Made by a program: the position numbers and the translations under genes. A DNA stretch of 55,976 nucleotides, taken from positions 1 to 55,976 of the forward strand of contig PSRQ01000023.1 of NCBI GenBank assembly GCA_003176165.1, read 5' to 3'. Every line of letters starts with the position of its first letter. Position 1 is the first letter of the stretch. The notes under the pieces are model-generated. The model was not told the origin of the DNA and ran no database searches. It saw nothing but the letters and a program-made list of their open reading frames with translations. Origin of the DNA: Candidatus Cerribacteria bacterium 'Amazon FNV 2010 28 9'. Lineage in GTDB: Bacteria > Patescibacteriota > Microgenomatia > UBA1400 > UBA12028. This document shows, piece by piece, positions 15,500-36,214 of the stretch.

Positions 15500-18400
15500 A
15501 TGCCAGAGTCTGAATCTTCATTGAAGCCACAACACATTCTCAATGAGAATAAAAATCTTTCGGATCCCCAAAAAGGGGTAGAAGGGTTTGAAAAAACATC
15601 AAGTAGAATAAAAATTGGTGGAGGCGAAAGAGAAAAACAATACTACTCTATTGCTGAAAAAATCTACGGCATAGTAGGGAAAATGAATGGATCTGATAAA
15701 ACGTATAAATTGAGTGAATCAGATAAAGGAACTTTACATGATATCAAGGACTCAATCCCAGACCTTATAGCAGCTGAAGATTCAGCTAGAGATGAAGATC
15801 TTAAAAGTGTTGATCCATCAAATACTACGGAAATGGATAGAATTCGCAGGCAAGCTGAAGTAAATAAAAATAAACACAAAGCTTTGGGAAGATATATTGA
15901 TAAGATTTTTGAAGAAAATTCAAAGAGAGAAACAGGACAAGGAAGCAATCTCCCTTCTGTAGAGTCAGCAAAAGTGGAAACTCCAACTCCGGAAAAAGTA
16001 AAATTGATTGAATTTAATGCAAATAATTTTGAAGATGAATTGGTATCTCGCCATGGGATGACTGAATTGGCTGATCTTAAGAAAAAGACCACTCAATTTA
16101 CCCAAGACTTAGCTGTTTTGCGTCCTGATTATTTTCCTGAAAGTGATTTAAATCGTCAAATTCCTGACACTAGTATGTTGCGGGATGTTAATTCGGCGAT
16201 TGATACAATCACGACTGTTGATCTACAAAATATTCAAAAACTTCGAGCGAAGTTAAATGATCCAGCCGTATTGGCTCTAGTTGTCATGGGTCTAGATCAG
16301 GGACAGCAAAGAGATAGAGAAAATTACATGAGGCATATACTTCCACGTCGCTTAGATGCTCTTCAAAAAACATTAGAAGATAAACGTCAGAAATTTCAAG
16401 AGAAGCGAGACTCGTTACTCACGAAGGATATAAGACATTCCGAACGGCCTGAAGTGTCTCAATTGAAGAAATTGATCGATACGGATTTCTCGACATTTAA
16501 TTTTACTGCTCTTAGTAATCTTCGGCAAAACATTGAAGCGGCACGTGCAAAAATAAATATTGCTCAAATCCAATCCGAATTGGAATCTCGAGGAATGTCT
16601 CCTTCTGCAGTAAAGCAAGAAATCGATCGAATTAAAGCAACTTACTTAGATAAAGTAGATGCTCATCTGCGAAGTATTGATGATCGTATGTTTGATGTAT
16701 GGAAGAATGAGTTTCTCAAGGATCCTTCCAGGGCGAAAGAATTTGTTGATCTCGAGAAAGCTCTGGAAGAAGTTCACACGTCGTCTCGTACGAAGTCTGC
16801 TGAAACAATGTCTCTCTACGATCGTCTTTTGGAAGCCCGTAAAGGAGTAGATGTTCAAAAGGTTGCTTGGATAAATATTTTACCTTCTTCAGAAAAGCAG
16901 ACAGAGGGGAATCGTTATATTTCTACCATTATTCAATCTGTAGAATCGAGCAAAGATGCCTTAATAAGAGAAGCAGAAGGATTGCTTCCTTCCGAGTTAT
17001 CTCAAGAACCTGAATATAAAAAGGTAGAGGATGCTATTGCAAAAGCGAAGCCTTTTGGAAATGTTTCAAAGGATAGTGATAAAAAGGGACTTGGTGACGT
17101 TTCGCTAGAAGAACAAAAGCGTTTAATTGATCAGGCATTACTTCAGTTTAATGAGACTGCAATAAAAGCGCGCTACCATAGTGAGTTACGATCATTGGTT
17201 CAATCAAAATTAGGTGAGGAAAAAGATAAAGCAGAAAAAGAGAAGCAATCTCTTATAGATGAAGAAAATAGGCGAATTAATACTGAAAGAGCTGTTGTTG
17301 CGGCCGGTTTGAGAAAAGCCGTTTCAGATGTTATTCATCTGGATGAAAAACAAGCTCTATCTCCGACGTATACATTGCAGCAATTAGAAAATTTACTTAC
17401 AGAGCTTGAAAAGACCGAACGAGAAGCTCGTGCAAATGGGATTGATATTCGTGATCCACAATATGGAGATCAAGGCTTTAATGATGCGAAAGAAAAAATA
17501 CAGAAGTTAATTCAAGAGAAAAAAGATATTAGTCGCGAAGGAATAGAAGCGTTGCTTAATGCACTAGAAGGAACTCAGAAAACATTTGATGAACAAGAAA
17601 AACTTTGGAACGAATTGACAAACGATCGTTTACCTAGAGTTAAAGAAAATGATCCAGCCTTATATGCGGAGCTATCAACAGAAGTAGAAGCTCGTAGAAA
17701 TTTACAAGCAACAGCTTCCATGGTAGAAAGAGCTTTTGGTTCTGGAAAGTTTATTAAAGAATTGAAACCTAGTGGTGTTGATCTTCGTTCTGAAGATATG
17801 GCGTATATCTTTAAGATGAAAGGTGTGGGGGATGCATGGAGAATTTTTGATGATGTGTGGCAAAACACAATCAAGATTGGTGGTGTTCAGATATCTGCTG
17901 CTAACTTTGAGCAGAATAAGTCCAAACTTATTGAGTATGTAGCAAGCCAGACAAATCCAACAGCTGCTCGAATGGCATATAGATTGCAAACATGTTTTAT
18001 GCGTCCGTCCGAGTTTGATCGCGAGCAAGCATGGACTGGAAAAGATGAGGTTCGTCAGGTGATGCATATTACCAAATACAGACGTAAATATGCTGATAAA
18101 CGTCGTGAATCAGGCCCAGAAATTACAATAAATGGATTCTTCAACGAAAAATCAAACTTTGACACTTCGGGAGCAAAGCCAGATAAAGAATCGTTCGCTC
18201 CCGTTGTTGTACTTCCTGATACGAGAAAACCATATGATGCAGGGTGGGATTTGTATCCTGGGTTTTTGCACTTCGCTTATATTGGAGACGTAGAGGCAGG
18301 TCCAGAAGGAAGATATGCAAAAACACCTCGCTTCAGAGATGCCGATGGAAAAATAGTAGATTTCAATAGTGATAAATATAGACGAGCAGATGGGAAGTTA

Positions 18401-18934
18401 GACGTAGAGCATATGCCTTGGGATCAATTAGAGACGGATGTACTCAAAACGTACATAGGACAAATGCAAACCGTTGGATATGAAATACATAACTGGATTC
18501 TTGAGCCAGAGCACGATGCGAAAAAAATGGCAAAAATGGATTATTTTCCATCCATTATGGCGAAATGGCAGTATTTGGAACCTTATATTTATAGAATTCG
18601 CGATTATACCTCAGCCTCAGCAGACAAAAAAGCTATCGATCCTAAAACTGGAAGGCCATATTGGGAAGTAGCGCGAGAAGCTACGGAAGCGTTTCGTCGT
18701 CAGTGGTTGCTTGGAATTATGGACAATAACTTTAATCAACAGTTTGAAGGATCTGGAAATTGGGATGACAATAACTTAAGAGACGTTTTAAATGCTGCCG
18801 TAGCAACTCATTTTATTACTCCTGAATCGAGAGAAATTATCATGAAAAATGCTGAAAAACTGAAGAGATCTATTGGTAGAATAGCTGCAAAAACAGCTCA
18901 GAAACTTCAAGATACGGTTATCGAGTCAGAGTAA
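15500..18934 (+). CDS. Large (1144 aa) hydrophilic coiled-coil-rich orphan protein with a ~400-aa globular C-terminal region
   Basis: Uninterrupted 3.4-kb ORF with AAGGAG 8 nt upstream of the ATG. K/E/D/Q-rich heptad-like sequence runs to about residue 730. The C-terminal part is aromatic-rich (PWDQLETDVLKTYIGQMQTVGYEIHNWILEP). No signal peptide, TM or NTPase motif seen. Confidence 0.85.
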   Translation: MPESESSLKPQHILNENKNLSDPQKGVEGFEKTSSRIKIGGGEREKQYYSIAEKIYGIVGKMNGSDKTYKLSESDKGTLHDIKDSIPDLIAAEDSARDEDLKSVDPSNTTEMDRIRRQAEVNKNKHKALGRYIDKIFEENSKRETGQGSNLPSVESAKVETPTPEKVKLIEFNANNFEDELVSRHGMTELADLKKKTTQFTQDLAVLRPDYFPESDLNRQIPDTSMLRDVNSAIDTITTVDLQNIQKLRAKLNDPAVLALVVMGLDQGQQRDRENYMRHILPRRLDALQKTLEDKRQKFQEKRDSLLTKDIRHSERPEVSQLKKLIDTDFSTFNFTALSNLRQNIEAARAKINIAQIQSELESRGMSPSAVKQEIDRIKATYLDKVDAHLRSIDDRMFDVWKNEFLKDPSRAKEFVDLEKALEEVHTSSRTKSAETMSLYDRLLEARKGVDVQKVAWINILPSSEKQTEGNRYISTIIQSVESSKDALIREAEGLLPSELSQEPEYKKVEDAIAKAKPFGNVSKDSDKKGLGDVSLEEQKRLIDQALLQFNETAIKARYHSELRSLVQSKLGEEKDKAEKEKQSLIDEENRRINTERAVVAAGLRKAVSDVIHLDEKQALSPTYTLQQLENLLTELEKTEREARANGIDIRDPQYGDQGFNDAKEKIQKLIQEKKDISREGIEALLNALEGTQKTFDEQEKLWNELTNDRLPRVKENDPALYAELSTEVEARRNLQATASMVERAFGSGKFIKELKPSGVDLRSEDMAYIFKMKGVGDAWRIFDDVWQNTIKIGGVQISAANFEQNKSKLIEYVASQTNPTAARMAYRLQTCFMRPSEFDREQAWTGKDEVRQVMHITKYRRKYADKRRESGPEITINGFFNEKSNFDTSGAKPDKESFAPVVVLPDTRKPYDAGWDLYPGFLHFAYIGDVEAGPEGRYAKTPRFRDADGKIVDFNSDKYRRADGKLDVEHMPWDQLETDVLKTYIGQMQTVGYEIHNWILEPEHDAKKMAKMDYFPSIMAKWQYLEPYIYRIRDYTSASADKKAIDPKTGRPYWEVAREATEAFRRQWLLGIMDNNFNQQFEGSGNWDDNNLRDVLNAAVATHFITPESREIIMKNAEKLKRSIGRIAAKTAQKLQDTVIESE

Positions 18935-19031: not shown

Positions 19032-20870
19032 CTATTCAATAGGGGGAGTTGGGTTGTGAACTTTTCTTCCGGCTGTTGGGTTTGACGCAGATGGAGGAGT
19101 TGGGCGTGGTCGTTTAGAAGGATCAAATCGGTCCAAAGCATTTTGTATCTCTTCTCCTGCAACCACATTAATAACCGCTCCAGTTGTTTGTCTACCGACT
19201 GTTTTAGCTAACTTCCATGCTTCACCACTCGAAACGAAGCCTCCACCAACTGCTCCAGCTGCTGTTCCTACTGCAGTATTACGAACAAGCCGGCCGGCTC
19301 TTTCTTTGAGTGTCCCTGGTTCTTTGATTGCGCTGTTAAGTCCAAGTAGGGCTCCTCCAGCGAACCCAACGCCAGCTCCTCCAAGAGTTCCTCCGACCAA
19401 AGTTGCTGGCTTAATGCCTTTTTCAAAATTCTTTCTCAGATCTTCAACTCCTACTCCCAATTCGCCCTTCATAAGTCCCTTCGTTACTTTTAATACTTCT
19501 GGCATAGCTAAAATGGCACCCAGAGCTAATAATCCTTGATATGCTCCCACACCGTTTGTTCCTTGATTGCTCCCAAGCTGAGGAGCAGAGAATCCCGTGT
19601 CGCTGCTTGTAGTATTGATGCCAAGTGTAAAGAAATAAGCGATAAAGATGAGCAAAATGAGGGCAGGGAATACTAAGAGATTTTCAAAGAGTCCCTTGAT
19701 CCATTTCCCAAACGTGTTTTGTCCAGGGAGGGCACCAAAAAGAAGTTGGATAGGCGCAAAAATAACGGAAAAGAAAACGGCAATGTACGCGTTTACTAGA
19801 GCAAAAAATGTGCGAAAGAGGGAAACGAGAATGACAATGGTAAGCACGAGAACCATGATGACATTTGTCACGCCCCCGACAAGTTTTCCTGCAAAATCCG
19901 CAATTCCTGTCCCTCCCAATCCCGCGTTGGTTAAGCTAGCTACAATATCACCTATATTTTGAGAAATGCCACCGACTAGATTGCCGATGATACCGAATCC
20001 ATTGGAAAAGATGTTTTGTACAAATGCAATATCTTGAAGTCTCAAGGTAGTTAGTTTTCCTCCTGAAGCAGAAGAGAAAATACCAATCATGAGGTAGATG
20101 ATCAGATACATGATGTCGATCATCAGTCCAGCGATGGCGTAAGAGAACGTAACCAAGATGAGTGAGACGACAAGCTTGGGAAGCATTTGCTGTGCAGTCA
20201 CGGCTGCTTGAGAACCAATTTTACTGCGAATCATGATGAGAAAGCCAACAACTACAAAGATGACGACAAAGAAGAAATACGCGACATCACGAAATACTTT
20301 CCATAACCCTAACACGGGGCTTAAGGATGAAAACCCAATACCTTGTGCATACGCAGATTGAACAAATGGATGTTGCATGTTTTGCATCACGTCCGCCACA
20401 TATTCACGAGAACTCACTGGTGGGTTTGCCAGTGCAATACCTGTCATATTGAGTGTGGTTCCAATCGCTCCAGGATAGTAGAGAGCTGTTTGATGTCCAG
20501 ATCCCGAGTTAGCTTGGCTAGAACCGCTTGGAGTGGTCCCTGCCATTAACACGATGAGGCCTTTAAGGATAGAACACAAGGCACCATCTCCAGAAACTTT
20601 TTGCGTGGTCGTATCTGTAAATCCACAGTCAGCGACTGTTGTTGTTAGGTTTGGAGCGCCTGTTGTGAGGCCCGCTCCGATAGAGTCAAGGTAACTTGAA
20701 ACAGCATCTGATGAAGGACCACCTTGTGCGGGGGAAGGTAAATTGGGACCCGCTGCAGCTTGCACGCGCGCAATTCCTGCAAACACAAATGCCATAAAGA
20801 CAAAAACGGCGAGAACAATCGATGGAAGTTTTTTGAGTATGCGGCGCATCGGACCTCTCTTATCTGGCAC
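19032..20870 (-). CDS. VirB6/TrbL-like polytopic membrane protein
   Basis: 612 aa. Signal-anchor (LAVFVFMAFVFAGIARVQAAA), a ~150-aa exposed region, at least 6 TM helices, and a Gly-rich C-terminal tail ending Pro/basic. It sits in a T4SS context next to the hydrolase and pilin genes. Assignment rests on architecture, not a motif. Confidence 0.7.
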   Translation of the reverse strand: MPDKRGPMRRILKKLPSIVLAVFVFMAFVFAGIARVQAAAGPNLPSPAQGGPSSDAVSSYLDSIGAGLTTGAPNLTTTVADCGFTDTTTQKVSGDGALCSILKGLIVLMAGTTPSGSSQANSGSGHQTALYYPGAIGTTLNMTGIALANPPVSSREYVADVMQNMQHPFVQSAYAQGIGFSSLSPVLGLWKVFRDVAYFFFVVIFVVVGFLIMIRSKIGSQAAVTAQQMLPKLVVSLILVTFSYAIAGLMIDIMYLIIYLMIGIFSSASGGKLTTLRLQDIAFVQNIFSNGFGIIGNLVGGISQNIGDIVASLTNAGLGGTGIADFAGKLVGGVTNVIMVLVLTIVILVSLFRTFFALVNAYIAVFFSVIFAPIQLLFGALPGQNTFGKWIKGLFENLLVFPALILLIFIAYFFTLGINTTSSDTGFSAPQLGSNQGTNGVGAYQGLLALGAILAMPEVLKVTKGLMKGELGVGVEDLRKNFEKGIKPATLVGGTLGGAGVGFAGGALLGLNSAIKEPGTLKERAGRLVRNTAVGTAAGAVGGGFVSSGEAWKLAKTVGRQTTGAVINVVAGEEIQNALDRFDPSKRPRPTPPSASNPTAGRKVHNPTPPIE

Positions 20871-20972
20871 CCTAAGAGGGAACCCGCCAGATGTTCTCTC
20901 CTTTTAAAGGAGAGAAAGATATTTATATTGTATTCTCGATGTGGTGTTCATGCAAGAAAGAAACAAATGTTG

Positions 20973-23900
20973 TTAATGACAACTGGTCATTTGTGTTGGG
21001 TAGGCGGGCAGATCACAGTGTCCTTGGGTGACGACACTCATGTTGCTCATCGTTTTTGCTGCGTATGCAGAAGCTCCGCTGGTGATCGTGCAACTGCTGT
21101 CAAATTCCCCATAGTGATATGCCTGACTGTAGTTGTCCCATGAGCACCCGTTTTGGAAACATTGACTAAATGTGGGTGGATAGGCATAGGGAAGATTTAA
21201 GAATGAGCTCAATTGGGCTTGGAAACCAACGACACTGGAGCTGTTGATACCAAAGTCTTGAACTCCTGGGAATCTGGCATAGTTACTCGCTCCACTTTCT
21301 TGTGCCCATATTGTCAATGTATAGATAGGGTTGACTCCTGCCGCAAGTGATTGGTCCACGACATCATTGAAGCATTTGTCAATTTGGTTGCCCGATGAGG
21401 TAGGATCACTGATCGACACAACTTGGTTGACCATATAATGAACTCCTTGTTTGAGTTGGAGCCATGAAGCGTCTGGTGCTGGAGCATTGGCGTTACATCC
21501 TACATTATTTGCAGCAATTGGAATGCGTTTTGGTCCAGGGCAGGCAATCGTTTGACTCGTGTCACCACTTCCGCCAGGATTGGTATTTCCACCGGGAGCA
21601 GGTGAACATGATGAAGAGGGGCTTCCAGCCTTGATACCCATACTCACAGCGACTGCAAATGGATAGTGGGCTTGTTGCACATTTGGATCAGTAGGATTGG
21701 GGAAGACTTGAGTCATCGTCCCATCAGTATTGGCCTTACACAGTTGTGTCACACTGTCACCATCAAGCATGACAAAATGCCCATCATCAATACCCAAATC
21801 CGCCATAGCTTGTTTTACCCCAGCCGGATTGGCTGCCAGCGTGCGAATGTAGAGCATGTTGTTTTTCAAACCAATAGCCGTGCGGAAGAGTGGCCCATCA
21901 TATGGAGGTTGGAAGTTGTCATAGTATACTCCAGTGACGATAAACTGTGCTTGCGTTAAATCTGGGGTACCTTTGATATCTGCTCGGTTTCCGCTGCGTC
22001 CGTCCCAGTCATACACATGCGCTGTCCCATTTTTATCAATCATGAGTGACATTGGATTGGTACCTGGTTTCGGAGGAACATTGGTGATGTTGCCATCGAA
22101 TCCAAATGGCCCGATGGGGTCATGTGCGCTATTTCCAAAGTTTGCATTGAGTGCAAATGCCAATCCTTTTCCACTTGCCCAGTCGCACGATTTTTGACCA
22201 TATTCTGATGGAAGAGAAGTGATGAGTGTACTTGCGTCAGCAGGGGCAGTGACCTCGTAGCCATTGCCAACCTGACTGATGGTTGCAGCACTTCCTTGAC
22301 CTGGTTGACATTGTGGAGCCGGAGCGGTGGTGTAGCACGCACTACTTCCTTGTTGTAAGATTTTTTCAAATCCAGCGTAGGGAACGGTTTGCTTCGTCGG
22401 ATCGGGATTAAGCACGTGACACACGATTTCCCACAGCGCACGTGTCAGTCGTCCTCCGGGGACGGTGGGGTTGATGTCAAACGTATCAATTTTTTCACCG
22501 TTGATGCTCCCAATGAGGCTGACAGCTGAATGAGCTATCCGATCAAATCCAACGATGGTGCTAGGTTGTTGTGGTGAGGACATGTGGACGGTCAACCCAC
22601 CGTTTGCTTTAGGAGCGGTATCGGACAGTTGTAAATATTTGTATGACTTTCCATCTCCAGGAACATCCGTATCTTTAGATGTCGTTCCTGCAGGGAAGAC
22701 ACCTCCCGCATACTGGGGATCAAGCCAGGTGTGTGCGAGGACATCGCCATAGTCAGCGATGTTGCGATACTCCTCGGGAAGGAGCATAAAGGTGCGCGTC
22801 GAGAGATTGTGATCGTTCGGCTCTTGTCCACGAAGATCTGCTTTTACCCCTACCGCAACTTCGTGCACAGGATCAGGATTGCCATCGGGGTTAATTTTTG
22901 TTTTGATCGTTTGCGCTTTTTCTCCCACGAGGTCACTAGACATGCAGGTAGAGTCATCTTCGTTCGGCGCATGCGGACGATCAATTTCAGCATTGATACG
23001 CTTGACGATCGTCGTTAAAAATTGGTCGGAATTGCATTCCGGACAGTCGACATGCTTTTCTCCAATGGGATCAGGGTCAATGGCAAGTGGTTCACTGCGA
23101 CTAATTTGCATCACTTGTGAAACTTGCGCTTTGCGATCGTCGGCGATGCGGTTTTGTGTTTCCAAGGAAGTCTGTGAGAGCATCGTGTTCATAAAGCCGC
23201 TATTGAAGCCAGTTCCTGGAACAGTCGTAAACGCAGATTCATCATCAGATGTACTCGCGACGTTGGCAGGGACGTAGACTTTGGTGACTTTGACGCGATT
23301 TTTGGCTTTGTCCAAGTTACTTCCTCCATCAGGAGCAAACCAACTGGCAAGGCGATCAATGTGTGTGTTGTTTTGGTAGGGATAATCAGTGTAGTGGATG
23401 ATGTATGCAGGTTTAAAGGCTTTGGGTGTGGTGGTCTCAACTTGACTTAAAAGTTGGGCATAGGCTTGTGAAGCTTGACTCGCATTGATGTTAAAGCACG
23501 AAAAATCTGGAGGGGCACTACTCAGCACATCCAAATATGATTTGCCCGCTCCAGGAACATCCAGATCTAAGGGACAACGCTGTGAAGCATTCGTCGTGGT
23601 TGGTGGTGTGATTTGGTCCGGTGTATTATTGATGAGTGTCGTGCTCTTTGGTTGGTTATCACACAGTGTCTTGATGGCATGCAGGAAACTCAACGTGTTG
23701 GAGCAACGTGGTGCGAGCGCGAGTGATTTACTGTCGTTTCCCGACGCGACAAAATTGTTGATCGAATCTTGGGCTGACGAGACATCTTTGTTGGGAAGCG
23801 AAGCGTTTGAAAAGAAACTTTCTAGATCGTTTAACCGTGACGTATCGGGAGCGCTCGCATTTTGAAACCGGAAGAGTGGAATGGTGGTTTGTTCGTGGTT

Positions 23901-25895
23901 AATAAAGGCAGTGCCACTCGCCCCACCCACAAAACATGCACCCTTGGCACAGCTAAAGAGAGTTGGGATGAAGTTTGGATCACTTGTATTGCCCACTTTG
24001 TCCAAATTTTTGATATCAGCCACATATCCAAATCGAGGCGCGCAGGTGATCATGTAATGAGAAGCCATTGATAATTGATCTTCTGGTGTGTTCTGATCTT
24101 CAATGCCGGGATAGATGTAGAGGCTACTTCCGAGCCCTTGTGTTTTACTACATGTATCTGGATCAATTTGGTTTCCGTCTGCATCAAAAATTTTCCCTTG
24201 GATAAAGTAAAACCAACTATTTGTTTGGTTACCGTGTTGTCCATTACAGTTGTTGACAATGAGTGTGGCTGCGCTGTTGATCCCGGAAGGAAGTTGTGTG
24301 GTTAATAACCAATTCAGTTGTTGTCGTAGCGAAAGATCTGGTTGCGAGCCCCAACCGTTAAAGTGGATGACGGGTTTGCCTGCGATTTGTTGAATAGCTA
24401 AATAGGTAGCGAGATTGCGATTGTGATTGGGAATCTGATTGACCATGTCAGAAGTAATGAGGGAGTCAAGATCGGAAGCAGGGGGTACATCAAACACGCT
24501 TTGTGCTAACCCATCGACCATGTCGTACACTCCAGCACTTTTCAGTGTCGTTGCAAATACATACGCACTGTATTCATTATTGTTTGGATCAAGTGAAGTA
24601 GGAGCGAGTACGTATTTTTGTCCTGGTCCATGATGGAGTTCCGCAGCAAATGCTTTGAATGTACTCGCATAATCAAGGGCTGCTTGACGAACGACAGAAG
24701 TATTTCCTTTATTATGGCTATAGCAGTACTCTTTTTCGAGGTTGTTCAGTTCATTTCCAAAGATGACGAGAGTTCCTGGTGGGAAAGCAGATGAATTATT
24801 GAGTTTGTCTGCAAACGCACGTGCTGCATCAGGCGTAGTATATTGAGCACCGGGATCATTACATCCCGCTGTCGTATCAACGATCGAGCCGTGGATACCA
24901 TAGACGCGCAAAAAGACATGCGCTCCTGGAGATGGATTATATGGAGAAGTCGGATCCTCAATACTATTTAATACTTGGACTGTTCCGCTGAAGCTATTTG
25001 GCTGGATCACTTTATCATTGACCCCTTGTTGTCCTTTTTGGTCGGCAAATGCAAGTTCAGGTCCTATTTTATCTCCATTTACTCCTGGACCACTACTTGG
25101 GATTGTTGCAGACCCACCTGAAGATAAGCCTCCAGATCCATTTTGTGAGGAACCTCCTGAAGAGCTTGAACCGCCATTACTCGTTCCACCACTTGAATTT
25201 CCCGCTCCCGTGACAGCAGCAGTAATGGCATCGGACAAAGCTGCTCGGCCTTGAGCGCTTAAGTGGACTCCATCGGAAGGTTTGCCCAAACAGGTTGAAA
25301 CTTCACATGTACTTTCCAAATCTGCACTTCCGAATCCAGAAATATTAATGACGGAAATATTTTTAATCGACTGAATTTGAGAATTCAGTGCCGACTCCGG
25401 AGTGCTGTCTAACATTGGCCAAATGAGCTTCGCGTAGGGAGGGTAATTGTGGGGAGTGTAGTAGTTAACGACAAATATGGTAGCAGTTGGATTCTTGGTT
25501 TGGATATCGCTCACAATTTGTTGGATCCCTGAAATAGTTGGTCCGGGAGTTTTGTTTTTTCCCATGTCGTTCACCCACGGTCCGACAACAAAATTCTGGC
25601 ATCCGCTATTTAGGAATGATTGATATGTTGAAGAATTGAGATACGTACTCAATGTGTCGGCCGGAACTGCAAAGTTTTTCCCCCCGGTCACTAAACTGGC
25701 GATAGTTTGGCCGCTGAATACCGGGGGATAATCTCTATAATTGCCTGCGTCGTAAGTGATGTTACCAGCTTCGACCGAATCTCCCGCAATCGCGACACAA
25801 CTATCTGCGTGTGCGGGTTTTGCAAACATAAAAAACCAAAGTGAAAGAGTGAACAAGAGGGAAGTAATCGATAATAAAAAGCGGCGCGCACGCAT
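20973..25895 (-). CDS. Giant secreted multi-domain enzyme: SGNH/GDSL hydrolase, Gly/Ser linker, TIM-barrel glycosidase-like region, phosphodiester-glycosidase (DUF2233)-like domain, lysozyme-like C-terminus
   Basis: Signal peptide ending AHA at residue 30. SGNH block I is AIAGDSVEAGN and block V is DGVHLSAQG. GS-rich linker at residues ~229-262. LVIFGNELNN is a GH-type NE motif. FRTAIGLKNNMLYIRTLAANPAGVKQAMADLGIDDGHFVMLDGDSV (from residue 1338) has the DUF2233 pattern. IWAQESGASNY lies near the C-terminus. Confidence 0.85.
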   Translation of the reverse strand: MRARRFLLSITSLLFTLSLWFFMFAKPAHADSCVAIAGDSVEAGNITYDAGNYRDYPPVFSGQTIASLVTGGKNFAVPADTLSTYLNSSTYQSFLNSGCQNFVVGPWVNDMGKNKTPGPTISGIQQIVSDIQTKNPTATIFVVNYYTPHNYPPYAKLIWPMLDSTPESALNSQIQSIKNISVINISGFGSADLESTCEVSTCLGKPSDGVHLSAQGRAALSDAITAAVTGAGNSSGGTSNGGSSSSGGSSQNGSGGLSSGGSATIPSSGPGVNGDKIGPELAFADQKGQQGVNDKVIQPNSFSGTVQVLNSIEDPTSPYNPSPGAHVFLRVYGIHGSIVDTTAGCNDPGAQYTTPDAARAFADKLNNSSAFPPGTLVIFGNELNNLEKEYCYSHNKGNTSVVRQAALDYASTFKAFAAELHHGPGQKYVLAPTSLDPNNNEYSAYVFATTLKSAGVYDMVDGLAQSVFDVPPASDLDSLITSDMVNQIPNHNRNLATYLAIQQIAGKPVIHFNGWGSQPDLSLRQQLNWLLTTQLPSGINSAATLIVNNCNGQHGNQTNSWFYFIQGKIFDADGNQIDPDTCSKTQGLGSSLYIYPGIEDQNTPEDQLSMASHYMITCAPRFGYVADIKNLDKVGNTSDPNFIPTLFSCAKGACFVGGASGTAFINHEQTTIPLFRFQNASAPDTSRLNDLESFFSNASLPNKDVSSAQDSINNFVASGNDSKSLALAPRCSNTLSFLHAIKTLCDNQPKSTTLINNTPDQITPPTTTNASQRCPLDLDVPGAGKSYLDVLSSAPPDFSCFNINASQASQAYAQLLSQVETTTPKAFKPAYIIHYTDYPYQNNTHIDRLASWFAPDGGSNLDKAKNRVKVTKVYVPANVASTSDDESAFTTVPGTGFNSGFMNTMLSQTSLETQNRIADDRKAQVSQVMQISRSEPLAIDPDPIGEKHVDCPECNSDQFLTTIVKRINAEIDRPHAPNEDDSTCMSSDLVGEKAQTIKTKINPDGNPDPVHEVAVGVKADLRGQEPNDHNLSTRTFMLLPEEYRNIADYGDVLAHTWLDPQYAGGVFPAGTTSKDTDVPGDGKSYKYLQLSDTAPKANGGLTVHMSSPQQPSTIVGFDRIAHSAVSLIGSINGEKIDTFDINPTVPGGRLTRALWEIVCHVLNPDPTKQTVPYAGFEKILQQGSSACYTTAPAPQCQPGQGSAATISQVGNGYEVTAPADASTLITSLPSEYGQKSCDWASGKGLAFALNANFGNSAHDPIGPFGFDGNITNVPPKPGTNPMSLMIDKNGTAHVYDWDGRSGNRADIKGTPDLTQAQFIVTGVYYDNFQPPYDGPLFRTAIGLKNNMLYIRTLAANPAGVKQAMADLGIDDGHFVMLDGDSVTQLCKANTDGTMTQVFPNPTDPNVQQAHYPFAVAVSMGIKAGSPSSSCSPAPGGNTNPGGSGDTSQTIACPGPKRIPIAANNVGCNANAPAPDASWLQLKQGVHYMVNQVVSISDPTSSGNQIDKCFNDVVDQSLAAGVNPIYTLTIWAQESGASNYARFPGVQDFGINSSSVVGFQAQLSSFLNLPYAYPPTFSQCFQNGCSWDNYSQAYHYGEFDSSCTITSGASAYAAKTMSNMSVVTQGHCDLPAYPTQMTSCH

Positions 25896-26200
25896 ACTGC
25901 TATTATAGCCTATTTGTGTGGCTTGTTCTTGCGTTTGTCATTCCCTACAGGTGGGAATTGCTCCCTCTCTGTCATCTCCACGAGCCAGAGGCTCTCTGAG
26001 CCGTGGACCTGAAAGCCGAATCCAACGCTATCCTCATCCGGGATCTTTTGCAAGAGAAACTTAAAGATTTCATCCGTACTTGGATACATCTCTCTTTTGC
26101 CGGTTCAATGTTATACGTTGAACCGAAACAGTTTCGGCAAATGTAGAAGAAGCGTTTATACTTCATGCCTTTTTACAATAACCCCATCATTCTACCGTTA

Positions 26201-26251
26201 AAGGATCCCGGCTACTTGACTGCACCGAAGGCGCGTCACGGCCGGGATGAC
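26201..26251 (+). repeat. Family-1 repeat, right-hand (A) hairpin module; possibly the end of a longer divergent copy starting at 25971
   Basis: aaggatcccggctacttgactgcaccgaaggcgcgtcacggccgggatgac is near-identical to 33416-33465. 25971-26050 begins gtcatctcc and ends catccgggatctttt, like the B module. Confidence 0.7.
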
Positions 26252-26307
26252 GAGAGAGAGGATAAGGAAAGAAAAACGGAAGATTTTTATCAGGGATGAC
26301 AACACTC

Positions 26308-26784
26308 TTACGGTTGCGGTGTTGGTAATTGTGTATGGAAGTTGAGGAATGTCGAGACACCCGTGAGTTGTGAGAGAATACGTAAAATCAAAATGGACGT
26401 GAGTGCGACGACGATGCCGATGATTGCAAAGGTAATAGCCTTTTGCGCTTCTTCCACACCTTTGCTATTGTTGCCAGCTGTTAAATATTTAAATCCACCG
26501 ATCAAAAACATAATGAAAGCGACAAAACCAATGAACGTGATAGCGGTGGCAAGCACGTTGGAAACGAGGCATTCGACACCTTGGATGGTAGCAACCTGAG
26601 TAATATCAGAATTCGGAACCGTTGGTTTGTCCACAAATTGGTTTGTTTTTGAGTTGTAATATCTTCCACATTGAGCACTCCAGTCTGCTGTTTGCGCTGA
26701 AGCGGGTGAAAGCGGAGCTAATGATAAAAATAAAAAGAAAATCGGTAAAAAGATCCTTTTTATCTTTGAAAGAAGTTTTTTCAT
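26308..26784 (-). CDS. VirB2/TrbC-like T4SS pilin paralogue P1 (with Sec signal peptide)
   Basis: Signal peptide ending PASAQ. Core FLIGGFKYLTAGNNSKGVEEAQKAITFAIIGIVVAL forms a two-TM hairpin with a basic loop. Two Cys in the N-terminal mature part. Confidence 0.8.
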   Translation of the reverse strand: MKKLLSKIKRIFLPIFFLFLSLAPLSPASAQTADWSAQCGRYYNSKTNQFVDKPTVPNSDITQVATIQGVECLVSNVLATAITFIGFVAFIMFLIGGFKYLTAGNNSKGVEEAQKAITFAIIGIVVALTSILILRILSQLTGVSTFLNFHTQLPTPQP

Positions 26785-26814
26785 CGCAATATTAATTGTA
26801 TCATTCTTCTCATA

Positions 26815-26843
26815 AAGAAAAAGCCACCCTTGTGAGGTGGCTT
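26815..26843 (-). terminator. Rho-independent terminator after the TolB-like gene
   Basis: agccacc cttgtga ggtggct hairpin with a T-run on the minus strand. Confidence 0.6.
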
Positions 26844-26864
26844 AAAATATCAAAACTTTGATAC

Positions 26865-27818
26865 CTATTTATTACTGACCATGATAAGACCATTTTTTGT
26901 GCTTGGGTCATAGTCAACATAGGCGATTTGAGTTCCATCGGAGGACCAGCTAATCCACTCTACAACAGCATTTCCACCTTCATGAACGTGAATGTCTTTT
27001 AACCATTGGGTGGTTTTTGAACTGACATCATATTCTTTCAAGGAATCACCGTCCAGAAAAATCATTGTTTTTCCGTTCGGAGAAAGTGAACCAGTGGGAA
27101 CATCATTTCCTCCACGAATGGATGTCCCATCTGTTTTCATGATTGAACCGCCCCTAAAAATAACCCCTTGCGCCGTCCATGTTTGAATGTCTCCAAAACT
27201 GTAGTTCGAAAGCATTGTGCTTTTGCCTGTTTCAGTATCTAAGACACAAGTATGGACGAAGGTGCTATCATCTTTGGCTCCACATAAATAAGCAATTTGT
27301 TTCCCGTTAGGAGACCAAGCAAGTGTTGGATATGGAAATAATCCATCATCCGCATAACCTATGACCTCTAGTGGGAAATTTCCAGAATCGGTCGTGTCGA
27401 GGAAGCACGAGTGTTCAAGTGTGGTAATTACGACAATGCATACCCCGTACGATTCCTTGCTTCCATATCCGGGTGCATATGCAATCCTTGTTCCGTCTGG
27501 AGCCCATTTTGGACTTGTCCCTAGAACGATTTTATTGGGAACAGAATTACCATTTGAATCAGTTATGAAGATATTGTCATTCATAACATAAGCAATTCTA
27601 TTGTCCAAAGGAGACCAATCTGGTTGGCCGATTGAATCCCACTGAGAAGTTGTGGTAGCCACAGTATGAGTGGGGTAAAAGATGTTTCCCAAGGTGTATT
27701 TAGCCAAGTTAAACATCCAGAAACACAGTGCCAGTACAATGATTGACGGGATTAGTAATACTATTCCACATCCTGGTCCACTTTCAAGTGGGACGAGCAC
27801 AATCGCAAACCTACGCAT
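26865..27818 (-). CDS. Membrane-anchored TolB-like (PD40/WD40-like) beta-propeller protein
   Basis: N-terminal TM, then repeated PD40-type motifs SPKWAPDGTRIAY, AWSPNGKQIAYL, SLSPNGKTMIF, WSSDGTQIAYV. Start set to the ATG at 27818; the track uses a TTG at 27854. Confidence 0.8.
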   Translation of the reverse strand: MRRFAIVLVPLESGPGCGIVLLIPSIIVLALCFWMFNLAKYTLGNIFYPTHTVATTTSQWDSIGQPDWSPLDNRIAYVMNDNIFITDSNGNSVPNKIVLGTSPKWAPDGTRIAYAPGYGSKESYGVCIVVITTLEHSCFLDTTDSGNFPLEVIGYADDGLFPYPTLAWSPNGKQIAYLCGAKDDSTFVHTCVLDTETGKSTMLSNYSFGDIQTWTAQGVIFRGGSIMKTDGTSIRGGNDVPTGSLSPNGKTMIFLDGDSLKEYDVSSKTTQWLKDIHVHEGGNAVVEWISWSSDGTQIAYVDYDPSTKNGLIMVSNK

Positions 27819-28030
27819 TTGGTATATCCATCCTTTTTCTCTGGGTAGAGACAAGTTGTCTCATAAAATCCCAGATAGGGAAATGCACACTGTGAGCACT
27901 TTCCAATCTGGGAAACCAGAAAAAATCTTCTTCACATGTTATAGAGCAAAATACTCTCATCCGTTGGATGAACAGTGAGTATTGTGGTGTGAATTATAGC
28001 ACGAATTATGGGGTGGCCCTCTCTTACCTC

Positions 28031-28175
28031 GTCATCCCTGACGCGACGCGAAGCCGTCGAGTATCAGGGATCTTTAAACAGGTTACGATTGAATTATTTT
28101 GAGCATGTAGTACGAATTGCAGAAAGATCCCGGCTACTTGGCTCCCGCAGATGGCGGGGCCATGGCCAGGATGAC
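28031..28175 (+). repeat. Family-1 composite MITE-like element (B hairpin - spacer - A hairpin), copy 1
   Basis: Starts gtcatccctgacgcg and ends ggccaggatgac, giving terminal inverted repeats GTCATCCC/GGGATGAC. Homologous to 33301-33465 and, inverted, to 35650-35800. Confidence 0.8.
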
Positions 28176-28212
28176 GAGAAAAATTGTAGGGACTTGGAGC
28201 AAGGGAATATCC

Positions 28213-28238
28213 AAAAACCCCCGCTTGAAACGGGGGTT
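28213..28238 (-). terminator. Rho-independent terminator downstream of pilin P2, followed by a second hairpin at about 28257-28277
   Basis: acccccg cttgaaa cgggggt with a T-run on the minus strand. A second stem cctctcc/ggagagg follows. Confidence 0.65.
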
Positions 28239-28320
28239 CTTATTTCTCTTTGTTTTCCTCTCCATTTTTTGGAGAGGAACTCTGGCAGGTTCCCGTACAC
28301 GGGTGCCAGAGAGGTGCGGC

Positions 28321-28698
28321 TTAGTAAGGTTGTGGCAAACTAATACTTGAGCCGACACGAATACCAAAGAAGGTACTCAAGACTTGTGAGATGGCGAAGG
28401 CTGCTGCGACGATGGCCAAACCAATGATGGCGTTGGTCAATTTTTGACGAGCACTCTCGGTCTTACTCTTGTCACCACCAGCGGTGATCCACTCGACACC
28501 ACCCCAAACGAGGTAGATGAAGACGAGCAAACCAACGATACCAAGGGTAACGGTCAACAATGAGTTAATCAATTTTCCAAGATCACTAATTTTGAAACCA
28601 GCGTTGGATGGGTCAACATTGATGGTTTGTGCGTACGCTGTACTAGCGAGTAAGAGACCACTCACAGCGGTACTTGCTTGTACGATCTTTTTTAACAT
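28321..28698 (-). CDS. VirB2/TrbC-like T4SS pilin paralogue P2 (candidate major pilin, Sec signal peptide)
   Basis: Signal peptide MLKKIVQASTAVSGLLLASTAYAQ. Core LVWGGVEWITAGGDKSKTESARQKLTNAIIGLAIVA. It has its own promoter-like and terminator signals. Confidence 0.85.
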   Translation of the reverse strand: MLKKIVQASTAVSGLLLASTAYAQTINVDPSNAGFKISDLGKLINSLLTVTLGIVGLLVFIYLVWGGVEWITAGGDKSKTESARQKLTNAIIGLAIVAAAFAISQVLSTFFGIRVGSSISLPQPY

Positions 28699-28750
28699 AC
28701 ATTCTCCTCTTTTTTCTTTGGACGATTACGATGTGATGTCCAGAGTATAG

Positions 28751-28778
28751 TATATACCACTCTCATTTACTTTTGCAA
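28751..28778 (-). promoter_or_regulatory. Sigma70-like promoter for pilin P2
   Basis: The minus strand reads TTGCAA - 16 nt - TATATA. AGGAG sits just upstream of the ATG at 28698. Confidence 0.45.
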
Positions 28779-28804
28779 ATTTTTTACATCAATGCAAAGA
28801 ATCA

Positions 28805-29278
28805 TTATTGCAATGAACAAGGAATGAGTCCGGGTGAACAATGGTCGTACGGGGGGCAGATCTTTGCAACTTGATGACCTCCTTTAGCTGTACAATCTGA
28901 AGGTGCTGTGCACCAAGGACTACATTGTGCACTCGAAGAACCACCTCCATTACCACTCAATGTAATATCGGTAATACCAAAGAATTTGAGCAAGATGCCG
29001 TAGAGCGCGAACACTGCTGCAAAGATTGCAAGGCCGATGATAGCTTGTGTGATCATTTCGCGTGCATGTTCTACTTTTCCTTTGTCGCCACCAGCAGTGA
29101 TCCAGTTGAATCCACCGAGTAACAAGTAGAGCAGGACAGCCAGCGCTGCGACGACGAGAATTGCTCCTGCGCCCATCTCAACGAGATGACCCAAATCTGT
29201 TACTTTTGAAATATTGCCAGAAACAGCTTGAGATTGAATATCTAATACATTTTGAGCGATGAGAGTAGATAGAATCAT
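28805..29278 (-). CDS. T4SS pilin paralogue P3 with a Cys-rich C-terminal extension
   Basis: Core LLLGGFNWITAGGDKGKVEHAREMITQAIIGLAIFA. The tail GGGSSSAQCSPWCTAPSDCTAKGGHQVAKICPPYDHCSPGLIPCSLQ has 6 Cys. ATG at 29278 lies 1 nt after the upstream stop. Confidence 0.8.
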   Translation of the reverse strand: MILSTLIAQNVLDIQSQAVSGNISKVTDLGHLVEMGAGAILVVAALAVLLYLLLGGFNWITAGGDKGKVEHAREMITQAIIGLAIFAAVFALYGILLKFFGITDITLSGNGGGSSSAQCSPWCTAPSDCTAKGGHQVAKICPPYDHCSPGLIPCSLQ

Positions 29279-29279
29279 A

Positions 29280-29693
29280 TTAATTAGCACAAGGCTTTCC
29301 TGGTACGCAAGGAGCAGGTGCAGTACCTCCTACTGGTGTAATAGTAACGTTATTTTCGAAAGACGGTTTTAAGAGGGGAATGCCAAGGCGATCACCAATA
29401 AAACCTGTAATAGCTACTGTTCCTACGAGTACAAGCATCCCAATAATCGATTGAGTAATTCTCTCACGAGCCTGTTCGATTTTACCTTTTTCGCCACCGG
29501 CTGTGATCCATTCAAAAGCTCCAATGACAAGCATGATAAGAAGAGCGAGGCCTCCGAGAGTAATGGCAGTCCTCCATACGGTAACAATGATATTTGTGAG
29601 TGCTAGTGCTGGAGCCACTCCACCTTGACCACCAAACGTACCAGTCACCACAGGGTTTGTAATTTCTTCGGATTGTGCAATGAGTGCAAACAT
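29280..29693 (-). CDS. T4SS pilin paralogue P4
   Basis: Core LVIGAFEWITAGGEKGKIEQARERITQSIIGMLVLV. Short C-terminal tail with 2 Cys. Confidence 0.8.
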   Translation of the reverse strand: MFALIAQSEEITNPVVTGTFGGQGGVAPALALTNIIVTVWRTAITLGGLALLIMLVIGAFEWITAGGEKGKIEQARERITQSIIGMLVLVGTVAITGFIGDRLGIPLLKPSFENNVTITPVGGTAPAPCVPGKPCAN

Positions 29694-29697
29694 AAGT

Positions 29698-30087
29698 TTA
29701 TGGTTTTAATGATTGTAATATTCGAGCAGGACTTAAGATGTCAATACCTAGAACACCACCAATGATTCCGGCAATTCCATACGCTGCAATAACGATGATG
29801 AGACCAAGCGCAGCATTCACCATTTGTTGCCTTGCATGCTCAATTTTACCTTTTTCTCCACCTGCAGTAATCCACTCTAGAGCTGCAAAAATGAAGTAAA
29901 TCAAAAACATGAGACCAGCTAGCGTGGTGAGAAAACCTAAGAAAGAAGAGAGGAAATGACTCAATTGATCTCCCGCAGCATTACCAGCACCGACAAGATT
30001 GGTTTCCCCCGCAACTGGAGCAAAGGCAGAAGAGGCGGGTTTTAATTGGCCGAGTGGAATGTTGTTGAGTTGTGCAATCAGTGACAT
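29698..30087 (-). CDS. T4SS pilin paralogue P5
   Basis: Core FIFAALEWITAGGEKGKIEHARQQMVNAALGLIIVI. Confidence 0.8.
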   Translation of the reverse strand: MSLIAQLNNIPLGQLKPASSAFAPVAGETNLVGAGNAAGDQLSHFLSSFLGFLTTLAGLMFLIYFIFAALEWITAGGEKGKIEHARQQMVNAALGLIIVIAAYGIAGIIGGVLGIDILSPARILQSLKP

Positions 30088-30088
30088 A

Positions 30089-30463
30089 CTATGGTCCTAA
30101 TTTTCCGACACCTTGAATGTGTGGGTTTAAGATGAATGTTGCATCTCCAAAGAGCAGGAAACTAACGATCGCTGTAATTGTGAAGGATCCGACGATAATA
30201 ATTAGACCAATTAAGCTGTAGAGAAGTTTATTGTTTGCTTCTTCAGCTGCTTTGGGATTGCCACTTGAACCGAGCCAAGTAAAACCTGCGGAAATGATAT
30301 TAAATGCTCCGAAAAGTCCGGCGACAACTGTAATAACCTTGAGCATGGTATTGATAAAGGGAACAAGTCCTAATCCTGTACCACCACTGAACGCTTGAAG
30401 AGGAGAGGGCTCTGGAAGTTGTCCAAAAATCGAATCAGCGATGAGATGCGGTGGCACAATCAT
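30089..30463 (-). CDS. T4SS pilin paralogue P6 (SSGNPK subtype)
   Basis: Core NIISAGFTWLGSSGNPKAAEEANNKLLYSLIGLIIIV. Confidence 0.75.
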   Translation of the reverse strand: MIVPPHLIADSIFGQLPEPSPLQAFSGGTGLGLVPFINTMLKVITVVAGLFGAFNIISAGFTWLGSSGNPKAAEEANNKLLYSLIGLIIIVGSFTITAIVSFLLFGDATFILNPHIQGVGKLGP

Positions 30464-30472
30464 ACGATTATT

Positions 30473-30826
30473 TTACAACGTTGAGCTAAAAATTGGTACT
30501 CCTGTAATCAGTTCAACCAATCGGACTAACCAGTACGCAACAAAGATAACGACAAAACCAAGAATAGCGCCTGTGATAGCTTGTGTTCCTTTTTCGGTAG
30601 CTTTAGGATTTCCAGCTGAGGAAATGATCATAACTCCACCAAACACAAGATAGAGGAGAAGGATAAAGCCAGCCAGCACAAAAGCGTTTGGGAGGATTAG
30701 CTGAAGAAAATCTTTTACTTGGTTGTATTTCCCCACATCACCTCCAACAGTAGTACCTGTGTTGGGATTTAGAATTAAACTTTTTCCTAAATCAAAGCCC
30801 CCTGAAGACGATTGTGCGAGTAACAT
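30473..30826 (-). CDS. T4SS pilin paralogue P7 (SSGNPK subtype)
   Basis: Core LVFGGVMIISSAGNPKATEKGTQAITGAILGFVVIF. Confidence 0.75.
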   Translation of the reverse strand: MLLAQSSSGGFDLGKSLILNPNTGTTVGGDVGKYNQVKDFLQLILPNAFVLAGFILLLYLVFGGVMIISSAGNPKATEKGTQAITGAILGFVVIFVAYWLVRLVELITGVPIFSSTL

Positions 30827-32095: not shown

Positions 32096-32183
32096 ATATG
32101 ACCTTATATAATAAATCAAGGCGTGATTATAGGTATGTCTCGATGTGAAGTCAAGAGAAGAGAGAAAAGTGTACAATAGGTAC

Positions 32184-32732
32184 ATGTTTGGTACTGATAC
32201 TCCGTCGTTTATCAATGCAATGAAGAAAGGTGAGCAGCGGGCTATCCGAGCATGGTACACCACATATGCTCCCAAGCTTGCTTCTTTTTTTTCATCGCGC
32301 ACTCGTGTGGCGAGTGATGTCGATGAGCTTGTCCATGATACATTTCTTTCGTGCCTTTCCTCACTTCCGCTTTTCCGTGCGGAAAGTGGCTTGTGGTCGT
32401 GGATGATGGGGATTGCGAGACATGAATTGTCGGATTATTACCGCAAGTTGTATGCAAAACGAGTCATCCATGCGTTACCACTTGGAGACACGCTTTTGGA
32501 AGCAGCAGAAAAACAAACATCAGGAAAGCATGAGGATACACTCGCGACACTGGCACGTTTGCCCAAGACAGTGGCAGAGCTTTTGCGCCTCAAGTATATC
32601 GATAAACAACCTGTGGAGCAGATCGCACAAGCGTTGTCGATCGAGCCGCACGCAGTGCAGGGGAGGTTGTACCGGGCGCGAAAAGCATTTAAAAAACTCT
32701 ACGATGAAATAGCAGAAGCAGAAAACACATGA
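32184..32732 (+). CDS. ECF-type sigma-70 family RNA polymerase sigma factor
   Basis: Region 2: DELVHDTFLSCLSSLPLFRAESGLWSWMMGIARHELSDYYRK. Region 4 HTH: LPKTVAELLRLKYIDKQPVEQIAQALSIEPHAVQGRLYRARKAFKKL. Confidence 0.85.
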   Translation: MFGTDTPSFINAMKKGEQRAIRAWYTTYAPKLASFFSSRTRVASDVDELVHDTFLSCLSSLPLFRAESGLWSWMMGIARHELSDYYRKLYAKRVIHALPLGDTLLEAAEKQTSGKHEDTLATLARLPKTVAELLRLKYIDKQPVEQIAQALSIEPHAVQGRLYRARKAFKKLYDEIAEAENT

Positions 32733-35845: not shown

Positions 35846-36205
35846 CTATCCAACGATACTCACTCCGAGAATGAGCTCGACGATACGCGCGAGCCAGTAG
35901 GCGCAGAAGATAATAAGAAACCCAACCAAAGCAGTGGTGATACGTTGTCTGCCTGCTTCTTGTTGTTTGGGATTGGTGGCTCCGGTGAGCATTTCAAATC
36001 CTCCCCACACAATCATGACAAAGAGAATGAGACCTGCGGCTGTAAACAAGTAGGGCATAAGGGAAGTGATGATGCCACGAGGAGTGACTTGATCGGGAGG
36101 CACGGCGTTTTTATCCGAGAGCGCTTTCCCGCCAGTGCCAAAAATTGCATTGTTCACGTTGGTGAACAAATCTTTGGTGCTGAGTGATGAATCTGCAAGC
36201 AACAT
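35846..36205 (-). CDS. T4SS pilin paralogue P8 (SSGNPK subtype)
   Basis: Core IVWGGFEMLTGATNPKQQEAGRQRITTALVGFLIIF. Confidence 0.75.
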   Translation of the reverse strand: MLLADSSLSTKDLFTNVNNAIFGTGGKALSDKNAVPPDQVTPRGIITSLMPYLFTAAGLILFVMIVWGGFEMLTGATNPKQQEAGRQRITTALVGFLIIFCAYWLARIVELILGVSIVG

Positions 36206-36214
36206 ATATTTCCT

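Follow-up and report, generated by a model that had tools for sequence, protein, structure and literature searches.

A giant exported multi-module protein of a Patescibacteria type IV secretion cluster as a probable wall-glycan-processing scaffold

What might a 1640-residue exported protein do when its gene is flanked by the pilin array of a type IV secretion system (T4SS) on one side and by the gene for the channel on the other? The question is raised by a contig of Candidatus Cerribacteria bacterium 'Amazon FNV 2010 28 9' (PSRQ01000023.1 of assembly GCA_003176165.1), whose 55,976 nucleotides (nt) are referred to here as the window. A large part of bacterial diversity belongs to the Patescibacteria, which apparently live on other bacteria. 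The T4SS and its pilins are needed for the epibiotic growth of Southlakia epibionticum, a cultivated Saccharibacterium (PMC10633639; PMC12857230), and the necessity of the T4SS and the pilin array has been tested genetically in one Patescibacteria species so far (PMC10633639). The large protein encoded after the pilins is not described in PMC12102498, PMC10633639 or PMC12857230. Analyses of sequence, predicted structure and gene order suggest that the T4SS cluster of Patescibacteria of the Microgenomatia/Woesebacteria type has this giant protein as a regular accessory component. It is probably a Sec-exported, T4SS-associated scaffold for the processing of wall glycans, with the envelope of the host a likelier target than the wall of the cell itself.

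The giant gene, its place in the cluster and its modular relatives

The giant gene is a single open reading frame (ORF). Because 78 relatives have been found and AlphaFold2 models of its product are confident, the ORF is a genuine gene, and a pseudogene or a chance ORF is ruled out. Its product is divided as follows, with coordinates in nucleotides of the window and positions in the protein as amino acid residues (aa).

20973-25895, minus strand: whole giant gene, a single ORF of 1640 aa plus stop codon, with an ATG start
25806-25895, minus strand: Sec-type signal peptide, aa 1-30, with an RARR n-region, a hydrophobic core and the end AHA/DS
25200-25805, minus strand: SGNH/GDSL esterase-like module, aa 31-232, with S40, N109, D208 and H211
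25071-25199, minus strand: Gly/Ser-rich linker, aa 233-275, from inspection of the sequence
24126-25070, minus strand: (beta/alpha)8-barrel resembling clan GH-A of the glycoside hydrolases (GH), aa 276-590, from the AlphaFold2 model, Foldseek and motifs
22311-24125, minus strand: family-defining Cys-rich core, aa 591-1195, common to 20 relatives
21621-22310, minus strand: predicted phosphodiester-glycosidase fold of the NAGPA/DUF2233 type, aa 1196-1425, from Foldseek and PF09992 matches of relatives
20976-21470, minus strand: all-alpha C-terminal module, aa 1476-1640, common to 15 relatives

The initial annotation, made from the sequence, had described a secreted protein of 1640 residues in this place, and both the ORF on the minus strand and the signal peptide are present. 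The motifs it had quoted are correctly placed at GDSVEAGN (aa 38-45), DGVHLS (aa 208-213), FGNELNN (aa 379-385), FRTAIGL (aa 1337-1343) and IWAQESGASNY (aa 1529-1539), and the Gly/Ser linker that it had placed after the SGNH module is found at aa ~233-275. WVNDMG (aa 107-112) and MLDGDSV (aa 1376-1382) have been located in addition, and a check of the codons of all quoted motif residues has shown that their positions are right. The giant protein contains 32 cysteines and one hydrophobic stretch (aa 5-25), which ends in AHA/DS; a scan of the whole sequence found no further transmembrane-like segment. The cleavage site was assigned from the sequence, without a dedicated predictor. The giant protein is thereby predicted to be exported by the Sec pathway, and since a classical Sec signal peptide is present, an effector translocated by the T4SS was judged less likely.

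The T4SS cluster of the window contains genes for VirB4 (4176-6047) and PrgI (7426-8484), a TraC-like gene, a gene for a protein with M23 and CHAP domains and PF18895 pilin genes, and matches the published T4SS of Patescibacteria (PMC12102498). These systems are related to monoderm conjugation systems, usually lack a relaxase and have pilin arrays of 2-11 genes, especially in Microgenomatia and Saccharimonadia (PMC12102498). The giant gene is flanked by the following features.

26308-30826, minus strand: VirB2-like T4SS pilin array of seven PF18895 genes, with a PD40 beta-propeller gene (26865-27854) within it
19032-20870, minus strand: polytopic VirB6-like gene, 612 aa, with five hydrophobic regions, assigned by homology at the same position

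The pilin gene adjoining the giant gene upstream (26308-26784, minus strand) matches PF18895 with an E-value of 5e-7, and the six other PF18895 genes lie at 28321-30826. The VirB6-like gene has no Pfam (VirB6) match and has same-position homologues with 26-49% identity in all related loci. The position between a VirB6-like gene and a pilin gene, pointed out in the initial annotation, is therefore borne out on both sides. The co-occurrence with T4SS genes holds as well, as the order of pilin array, giant gene and VirB6-like gene is the same in all eight fully flanked loci, namely the window and seven others, with seven or eight pilin paralogues per array. A distant member of the family (P0042) likewise follows a pilin array, and in locus L006 the giant gene as called overlaps the start of the VirB6-like gene. 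Among the three GTDB loci, two carry the label Candidatus Woesebacteria. The giant protein is the most divergent protein of the cluster, with 31-37% identity as against 47-70% for the pilins and 45-49% for the VirB6-like protein in the same loci; the identity of VirB4 to that of the window is 62-64% in L001 and L003.

Standard searches have found little similarity to the giant protein. NCBIfam and PDB sequence searches with the whole protein gave no match, its sole Pfam match, to Lipase_GDSL_2, has 17.8 bits where the cut-off is 32.9, and six segments scanned singly against Pfam gave no GH, DUF2233 or SLT match. A first genome scan for relatives found nothing, and word-indexed homologue searches returned two partial relatives only, even with a 37-sequence profile: P0002, which has the SGNH module and aa 1175-1476 in common with the giant protein, and P0003, which has the C-terminal module in common with it. 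A 40-sequence alignment was too divergent for the design of search patterns. An exhaustive HMMER phmmer search of 1.84 billion representatives with aa 275-1474 as the query yielded 78 relatives at E<=1e-3, including 31 at E<=1e-30.

These relatives are built from separable blocks. The GH-like block (aa ~265-600) was mapped in 46 relatives, the core block (aa ~590-1200) in 20 with E-values of 1e-62 to 1e-184, the block of aa ~1200-1430 in 12 and that of aa ~1480-1640 in 15; the SGNH block was found in P0002 and P0034. The commonest architecture is a signal peptide followed by the barrel, the core and a variable C-terminus, and by alignment the protein of the window is a maximal version of it. 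Enzyme modules of the GH5, SGNH, NAGPA, M23 and lysozyme-like types are swapped around the same core among the relatives: bona fide GH5/Glyco_hydro_cc modules accompany the core in P0006 and P0009, a strong GDSL match (E 1.6e-11) in P0013, NAGPA in P0004 and M23 in two relatives. Many relatives carry canonical GH5, GDSL or NAGPA domains above the Pfam cut-offs, and several are without the lysozyme-like module. The initial annotation had overlooked the ~600-aa Cys-rich core, the strict synteny and the swapping of modules.

Among P0006, P0009, P0013, P0019 and P0023, the slot N-terminal to the core is occupied by at least three types of TIM barrel, namely a family-specific one with the motifs GNELNN...FTEYG, a bona fide GH5/Glyco_hydro_cc barrel and one with ELANEPHC...IGE.

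Predicted folds and catalytic motifs of the modules

The NAGPA module (aa 1196-1425) has the one securely identified fold among the modelled parts of the giant protein. An AlphaFold2 model covering this module and the C-terminal module has a mean pLDDT of 82.8, and the top 13 Foldseek matches of the module in the PDB are NAGPA, DUF2233 or Slr0280 structures (E 2e-8 to 5e-6, probability 1.0, TM score 0.46-0.56), including 6pku, 6u11 and 3ohg at E ~2e-8. A profile of the module also finds 3ohg, a DUF2233 structure, with an E-value of 8.8e-6. PF09992 is matched by 11 of 13 homologous modules (best E 8.6e-11), including that of P0004, the closest relative, which lies above the cut-off (E 1e-7); the copy in the window has no match to PF09992 or any other Pfam model at E<=1. 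Fold and profile matches thus support the DUF2233 or phosphodiester-glycosidase domain named in the initial annotation. Foldseek searches of BFVD match phage phosphodiester glycosidases at E ~1e-9, and several phage proteins with this fold are named endolysins, CHAP-domain proteins, autolysins or muramidases.

The module shares its fold, a conserved Asp and an R-T motif (R1338-T1339 in the window) with NAGPA, the uncovering enzyme, with the bacterial DUF2233 protein 3ohg and with phage proteins such as Orf92 of Lactobacillus phage LP65, and the phage phosphodiester-glycosidase domain is fused to wall-lytic modules, as it is in the giant protein. Unlike these proteins, the module of the window reads DGDSV in its loop, lies below Pfam detection and makes up only part of a far longer polypeptide. 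The DGGGS loop of human NAGPA contains the essential D286, and its backbone amides bind N-acetylglucosamine (GlcNAc) and phosphate (PMC13474241). The window has D1378-G-D-S-V where DGGGS is expected, with the Asp kept. A D(G/S)D(S/T) loop is found in all five T4SS-linked homologues of the same architecture and DGGGS or DGGSS in distant ones, so that the altered loop looks like a maintained, family-specific variant, not decay.

The region of aa 276-590 is confidently predicted to be a (beta/alpha)8 barrel. An AlphaFold2 model of the barrel and the core, built from a 40-sequence alignment, has a mean pLDDT of 87.6 and a pTM of 0.73, and its first ~320 residues form eight alternating strand/helix repeats with pLDDT mostly >90. 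The best Foldseek match of the barrel in the PDB is a GH53 enzyme (6gp5, E 2.1e-4), followed by GH51, GH5, GH30 and GH10 structures with TM scores <=0.43 and identities of 10-16%. E382 of the N-E motif, the putative acid/base Glu, is kept in all 47 barrel modules and sits 3 residues past the strand of aa 375-379, right after beta4. The beta7 site reads F-T-E-(Y/F)-G in 20 of the 47 modules and H-F-E-G-W-G in 14, so that a nucleophile Glu is present at one of two columns in 34 and missing in 13. The barrel of the window reads HFNGWG, with N513/G514 in place of this Glu.

The post-beta4 N-E Glu, the T-E-(Y/F)-G of relatives at beta7 and the barrel fold itself are thus reminiscent of clan GH-A (GH53, GH5, GH51 and GH30), whereas the TM scores of the window barrel, the absence of a GH hidden Markov model (HMM) match and the missing nucleophile Glu set it apart, and the resemblance to clan GH-A glycosidases is weak. 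A Pfam search of 21 barrel modules and a PDB profile search gave no match and no curated GH family model. The barrel is related by hhalign to the N-terminal module of the P0004 group (GNE...ITEFG) with a probability of 99%. The proposal that it is equivalent to the Pfam-verified GH5 modules of relatives was rejected, as hhalign gave a probability of ~1%, and because of this the GH-A assignment is made from fold and motifs only. The GH-type NE motif of the initial annotation therefore stands in part: a TIM barrel with GH-A neighbours and a conserved E382 is found, but a nucleophile Glu and a GH HMM match are not. We infer that the barrel of the window is a glycan-binding or non-canonical module.

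The module of aa 31-232 is plausibly an SGNH esterase, and its Ser-Asp-His triad is intact. Its Pfam PF13472 (Lipase_GDSL_2) scores of 17.8-20.5 bits lie below the cut-off of 32.9, the highest being that of the isolated segment (20.5 bits, E 7.6e-4). Block I (AIAGDS40VEAG), block III (GPWVN109D) and block V (D208GVH211) are unchanged across three homologues (the window, P0002 and P0034), and so therefore are S40, D208 and H211 of the triad. PDB profile matches of the module are SGNH enzymes exclusively, but with E-values of 0.19-1.2; in the alignment with one of these enzymes, 4ppy, blocks III and V coincide with their counterparts. All catalytic blocks of the SGNH/GDSL esterase first proposed for this region are thus intact, but its HMM scores are under threshold.

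The all-alpha C-terminal module (aa 1476-1640) carries E1533-S1534 at the C-terminal end of a predicted helix (aa 1523-1534) and a D-x-G motif, D1547-F-G, 14 residues past E1533. Across 16 such modules, conservation of E and S is 90% or higher, and D and G are invariant. Pfam Glucosaminidase (GH73) matches three of the 16 modules (best E 0.011) and SLT matches two (best E 0.074); the copy in the window has no Pfam Glucosaminidase or SLT match, and a PDB profile search with the module was empty. The PDB folds matched by the module (E 0.5-1.6) are those of Auto, T4 lysozyme and LtgA, and its matches in BFVD are LT_GEWL (probability 0.63) and SLT (probability 0.33-0.41). The lysozyme- or transglycosylase-like C-terminus suggested initially agrees with the E-S pair at the helix end and with consistent fold hints, but the HMM and fold matches are weak; the module is probably lysozyme-like and may cleave glycan strands. 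Taken together, the domain guesses of the initial annotation were right for the most part. As regards annotation, standard HMMs miss the modules of the NAGPA and GH-like types found here.

The core of ~600 aa that links these modules appears to be disulfide-rich, has no known relative and defines a protein family. It is modelled confidently as a mixed alpha/beta domain, and its invariant motifs are CPEC (C951/C954), RINAE, LLPEEYRN and VPGGxLAR. A PDB profile search, PHROGs and Pfam across 37 full-length relatives gave no match to the core, and none was found among the 50 best Foldseek PDB matches, where TIM barrels filled the list and could mask a weak core match. Equivalence with the ~600-aa core of P0002 and P0003 was rejected, as hhalign gave a probability <1% whether one sequence or a 21-sequence profile was used; the two cores share a co-linear Cys/IPL/VPN pattern only, and homology is not claimed.

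Proposed wall processing and competing roles

T4SS clusters are known to encode peptidoglycan hydrolases, such as VirB1, PrgK of pCF10, TraG of pIP501 and CD419/TrsG, which are thought to open the wall (PMC12102498). The giant protein resembles them in being encoded in a T4SS cluster, exported and composed of several modules with a lysozyme/SLT-like part, but differs in that it has no SLT or CHAP HMM match, is three to six times larger, combines a novel 600-aa core with SGNH, TIM-barrel and NAGPA modules, which are not described for VirB1-type proteins, and is accompanied in its cluster by a separate M23 and CHAP protein. Phages offer a parallel in their virion-associated peptidoglycan hydrolases and modular endolysins, and a similar co-occurrence of domains is seen among the BFVD matches. 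In these phage enzymes, interchangeable wall-degrading modules are carried on a scaffold for crossing a foreign wall. The giant protein, unlike them, is not phage-encoded, and its scaffold is the T4SS-linked core; a PHROG search with all its modules gave no match.

The initial annotation had proposed that an acylated or phosphodiester-linked wall glycopolymer is attacked, either that of a partner cell or the cell's own, and the predicted module set is compatible with this. A plausible mechanism is that the core docks the giant protein at the T4SS pilus or the VirB6-like channel, where its modules would locally strip and cut a peptidoglycan-type wall and thereby let the pilus or channel through. 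In such a process, O-acetyl groups would be removed, polymers that are attached through GlcNAc-1-phosphate would be released and glycan strands would be cleaved. Since the enzyme set is swapped among relatives while the machine is conserved, the wall of the host is the likelier target than the own wall.

Several observations count against such a role. Two of the four modules deviate at catalytic positions, the barrel by N513/G514 and the NAGPA module by DGDSV, the evidence for the lysozyme-like module is weak with fold E-values >0.2, and the enzymatic activities of the modules are predictions from sequence and models. NAGPA chemistry leaves the acceptor sugar phosphorylated, so that it detaches the polymer and by itself would not free C6 of N-acetylmuramic acid. 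The M23 and CHAP hydrolase of the cluster (9549-13232) might do the wall opening, the physical tie of the giant protein to the pilus or the VirB6-like protein is deduced from gene order, and fast divergence with module swapping fits adaptation to hosts but could alternatively reflect relaxed constraint.

If the own wall were the substrate, the giant protein would be a functional analogue of VirB1 that opens the cell's own peptidoglycan and S-layer region for assembly of the pilus and channel. Its gene lies within the T4SS cluster, it is predicted to be Sec-exported and to end in a lysozyme-like module like VirB1, and most pilin-bearing genomes of the candidate phyla radiation (CPR) are without a recognisable VirB1 (PMC12102498). 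An invariant self wall, however, predicts neither the rapid exchange of enzyme modules among close relatives nor that the giant gene should be the most divergent of the cluster, the M23 and CHAP hydrolase is already at hand and several relatives are without the lysozyme-like module, which makes remodelling of the own wall doubtful. It is also conceivable, although unlikely, that the protein is an adhesin at the pilus tip, in which mostly inactive, lectin-like modules bind host glycans for attachment and host recognition and which corresponds to VirB5 by position or stands in for the missing PrgB-type adhesin. The gene between the pilins and the VirB6-like gene has a position comparable to that of virB5, which adjoins virB6 in classical operons. 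Loss of the barrel nucleophile in 13 of 47 modules and the altered DGGGS loop would fit binding modules, and for the T4SS of Patescibacteria it has been stated that 'No adhesins such as PrgB were detected' (PMC12102498). Conservation nevertheless extends to the triad of the SGNH module, the Asp of NAGPA, the acid/base Glu of the barrel and the E-S pair of the C-terminal module, the canonical domains of many relatives speak for enzymes, and no similarity to VirB5/TraC or PrgB was found in Pfam, nor a VirB5- or PrgB-like structure among the Foldseek matches listed.

Scavenging of nutrients by a secreted glycan degrader, which would free GlcNAc or muropeptides from host or environmental polymers and whose location beside the T4SS would reflect co-regulation, is the least probable of these explanations and highly improbable in itself. 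It would account for the export of the protein, for the release of GlcNAc by NAGPA-type cleavage (PMC13474241) and for its presence in CPR bacteria, in which many biosynthetic pathways are missing (PMC12102498), but not for the VirB6-like gene being strictly adjacent, and in some cases overlapping, in every fully flanked locus, and a free digestive enzyme would not need a large conserved non-enzymatic core.

The T4SS-associated wall-glycan-processing scaffold is therefore the favoured reading. A more specific and rather speculative form of it, which we consider unlikely as it stands, is that the giant protein is a distal, host-contacting subunit of the T4SS pilus, in which the core caps or docks at the multi-pilin filament and the cassette of modules digests host-specific wall decorations, such as O-acetyl groups, GlcNAc-1-phosphate-linked polymers (teichoic acids, arabinogalactan-type linkers) and glycan strands. 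If so, the set of modules would decide which hosts an ultrasmall epibiont can tap. More generally, a conserved, exported, enzyme-bearing protein whose gene separates the pilin array from that of the channel, and whose enzyme set shows host-like variability, is a testable candidate for wall breaching or host recognition. A 600-aa core domain family without a known relative is now defined, and the catalytic-site variants (loss of the nucleophile and the DGDSV loop) call for biochemistry before the enzymes are named.

Neighbouring genes and intergenic regions

Scans for promoters and terminators flanking the giant gene gave results at or below shuffle expectation. The spacer between the adjoining pilin gene and the giant gene (25896-26307) comprises 412 nt of non-coding sequence, as against <=50 nt in L003, L006 and L010, and contains short ORFs only, for example one of 64 aa with a CxxC motif at 25972-26166 on the minus strand. 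On the other side, 102 nt separate the stop codon of the giant gene from the VirB6-like gene, and a palindrome with a 10-bp stem, TTCTCTCCTTTTAAAGGAGAGAA, lies in this gap at 20894-20916; the two genes abut or overlap in other loci.

The rank order of the pilin paralogues is the same in the window (26308-30826; also 35846-37372), L001, L003, L006, L008 and L010-L012, and the best match of each pilin is the window pilin at the same position, with 47-70% identity in the Woesebacteria loci. The arrays are therefore long established, with a fixed complement of 7-8 distinct subunits, and are not recent tandem copies. Genes for PD40/WD40-like beta-propellers lie within and beside the pilin array at 26865-27854 and 30857-32302, both on the minus strand; the former, of 329 aa, stands between the last two pilin genes, and no homologue was detected at this place in relatives.

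Just past the VirB6-like gene, on the opposite strand, an ORF of 1144 aa (15500-18934, plus strand) has no Pfam match. Relatives have ORFs of 814-1137 aa in the same place and orientation, which show no BLAST similarity to it at 1e-4, and the cluster may have in its product a second large protein that evolves fast. The M23 peptidase and CHAP protein (9549-13232, minus strand), with 1227 aa, is a second very large wall hydrolase of the cluster, and M23 proteins come after VirB4 in related loci.

L010 (CAZWPK010000003.1) is titled 'uncultured Pseudomonadales bacterium' and contains a complete CPR-type cluster of pilin, giant and VirB6-like genes; the record is probably a mislabelled or chimeric metagenome-assembled genome. 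Finally, a gene for a sigma-70 factor of the extracytoplasmic function (ECF) type, with Sigma70_r2/r4 domains, lies divergently and immediately upstream of the pilin array in L006, L008 and L014, and this gene may encode a dedicated regulator of the operon of the pilins and the giant protein.

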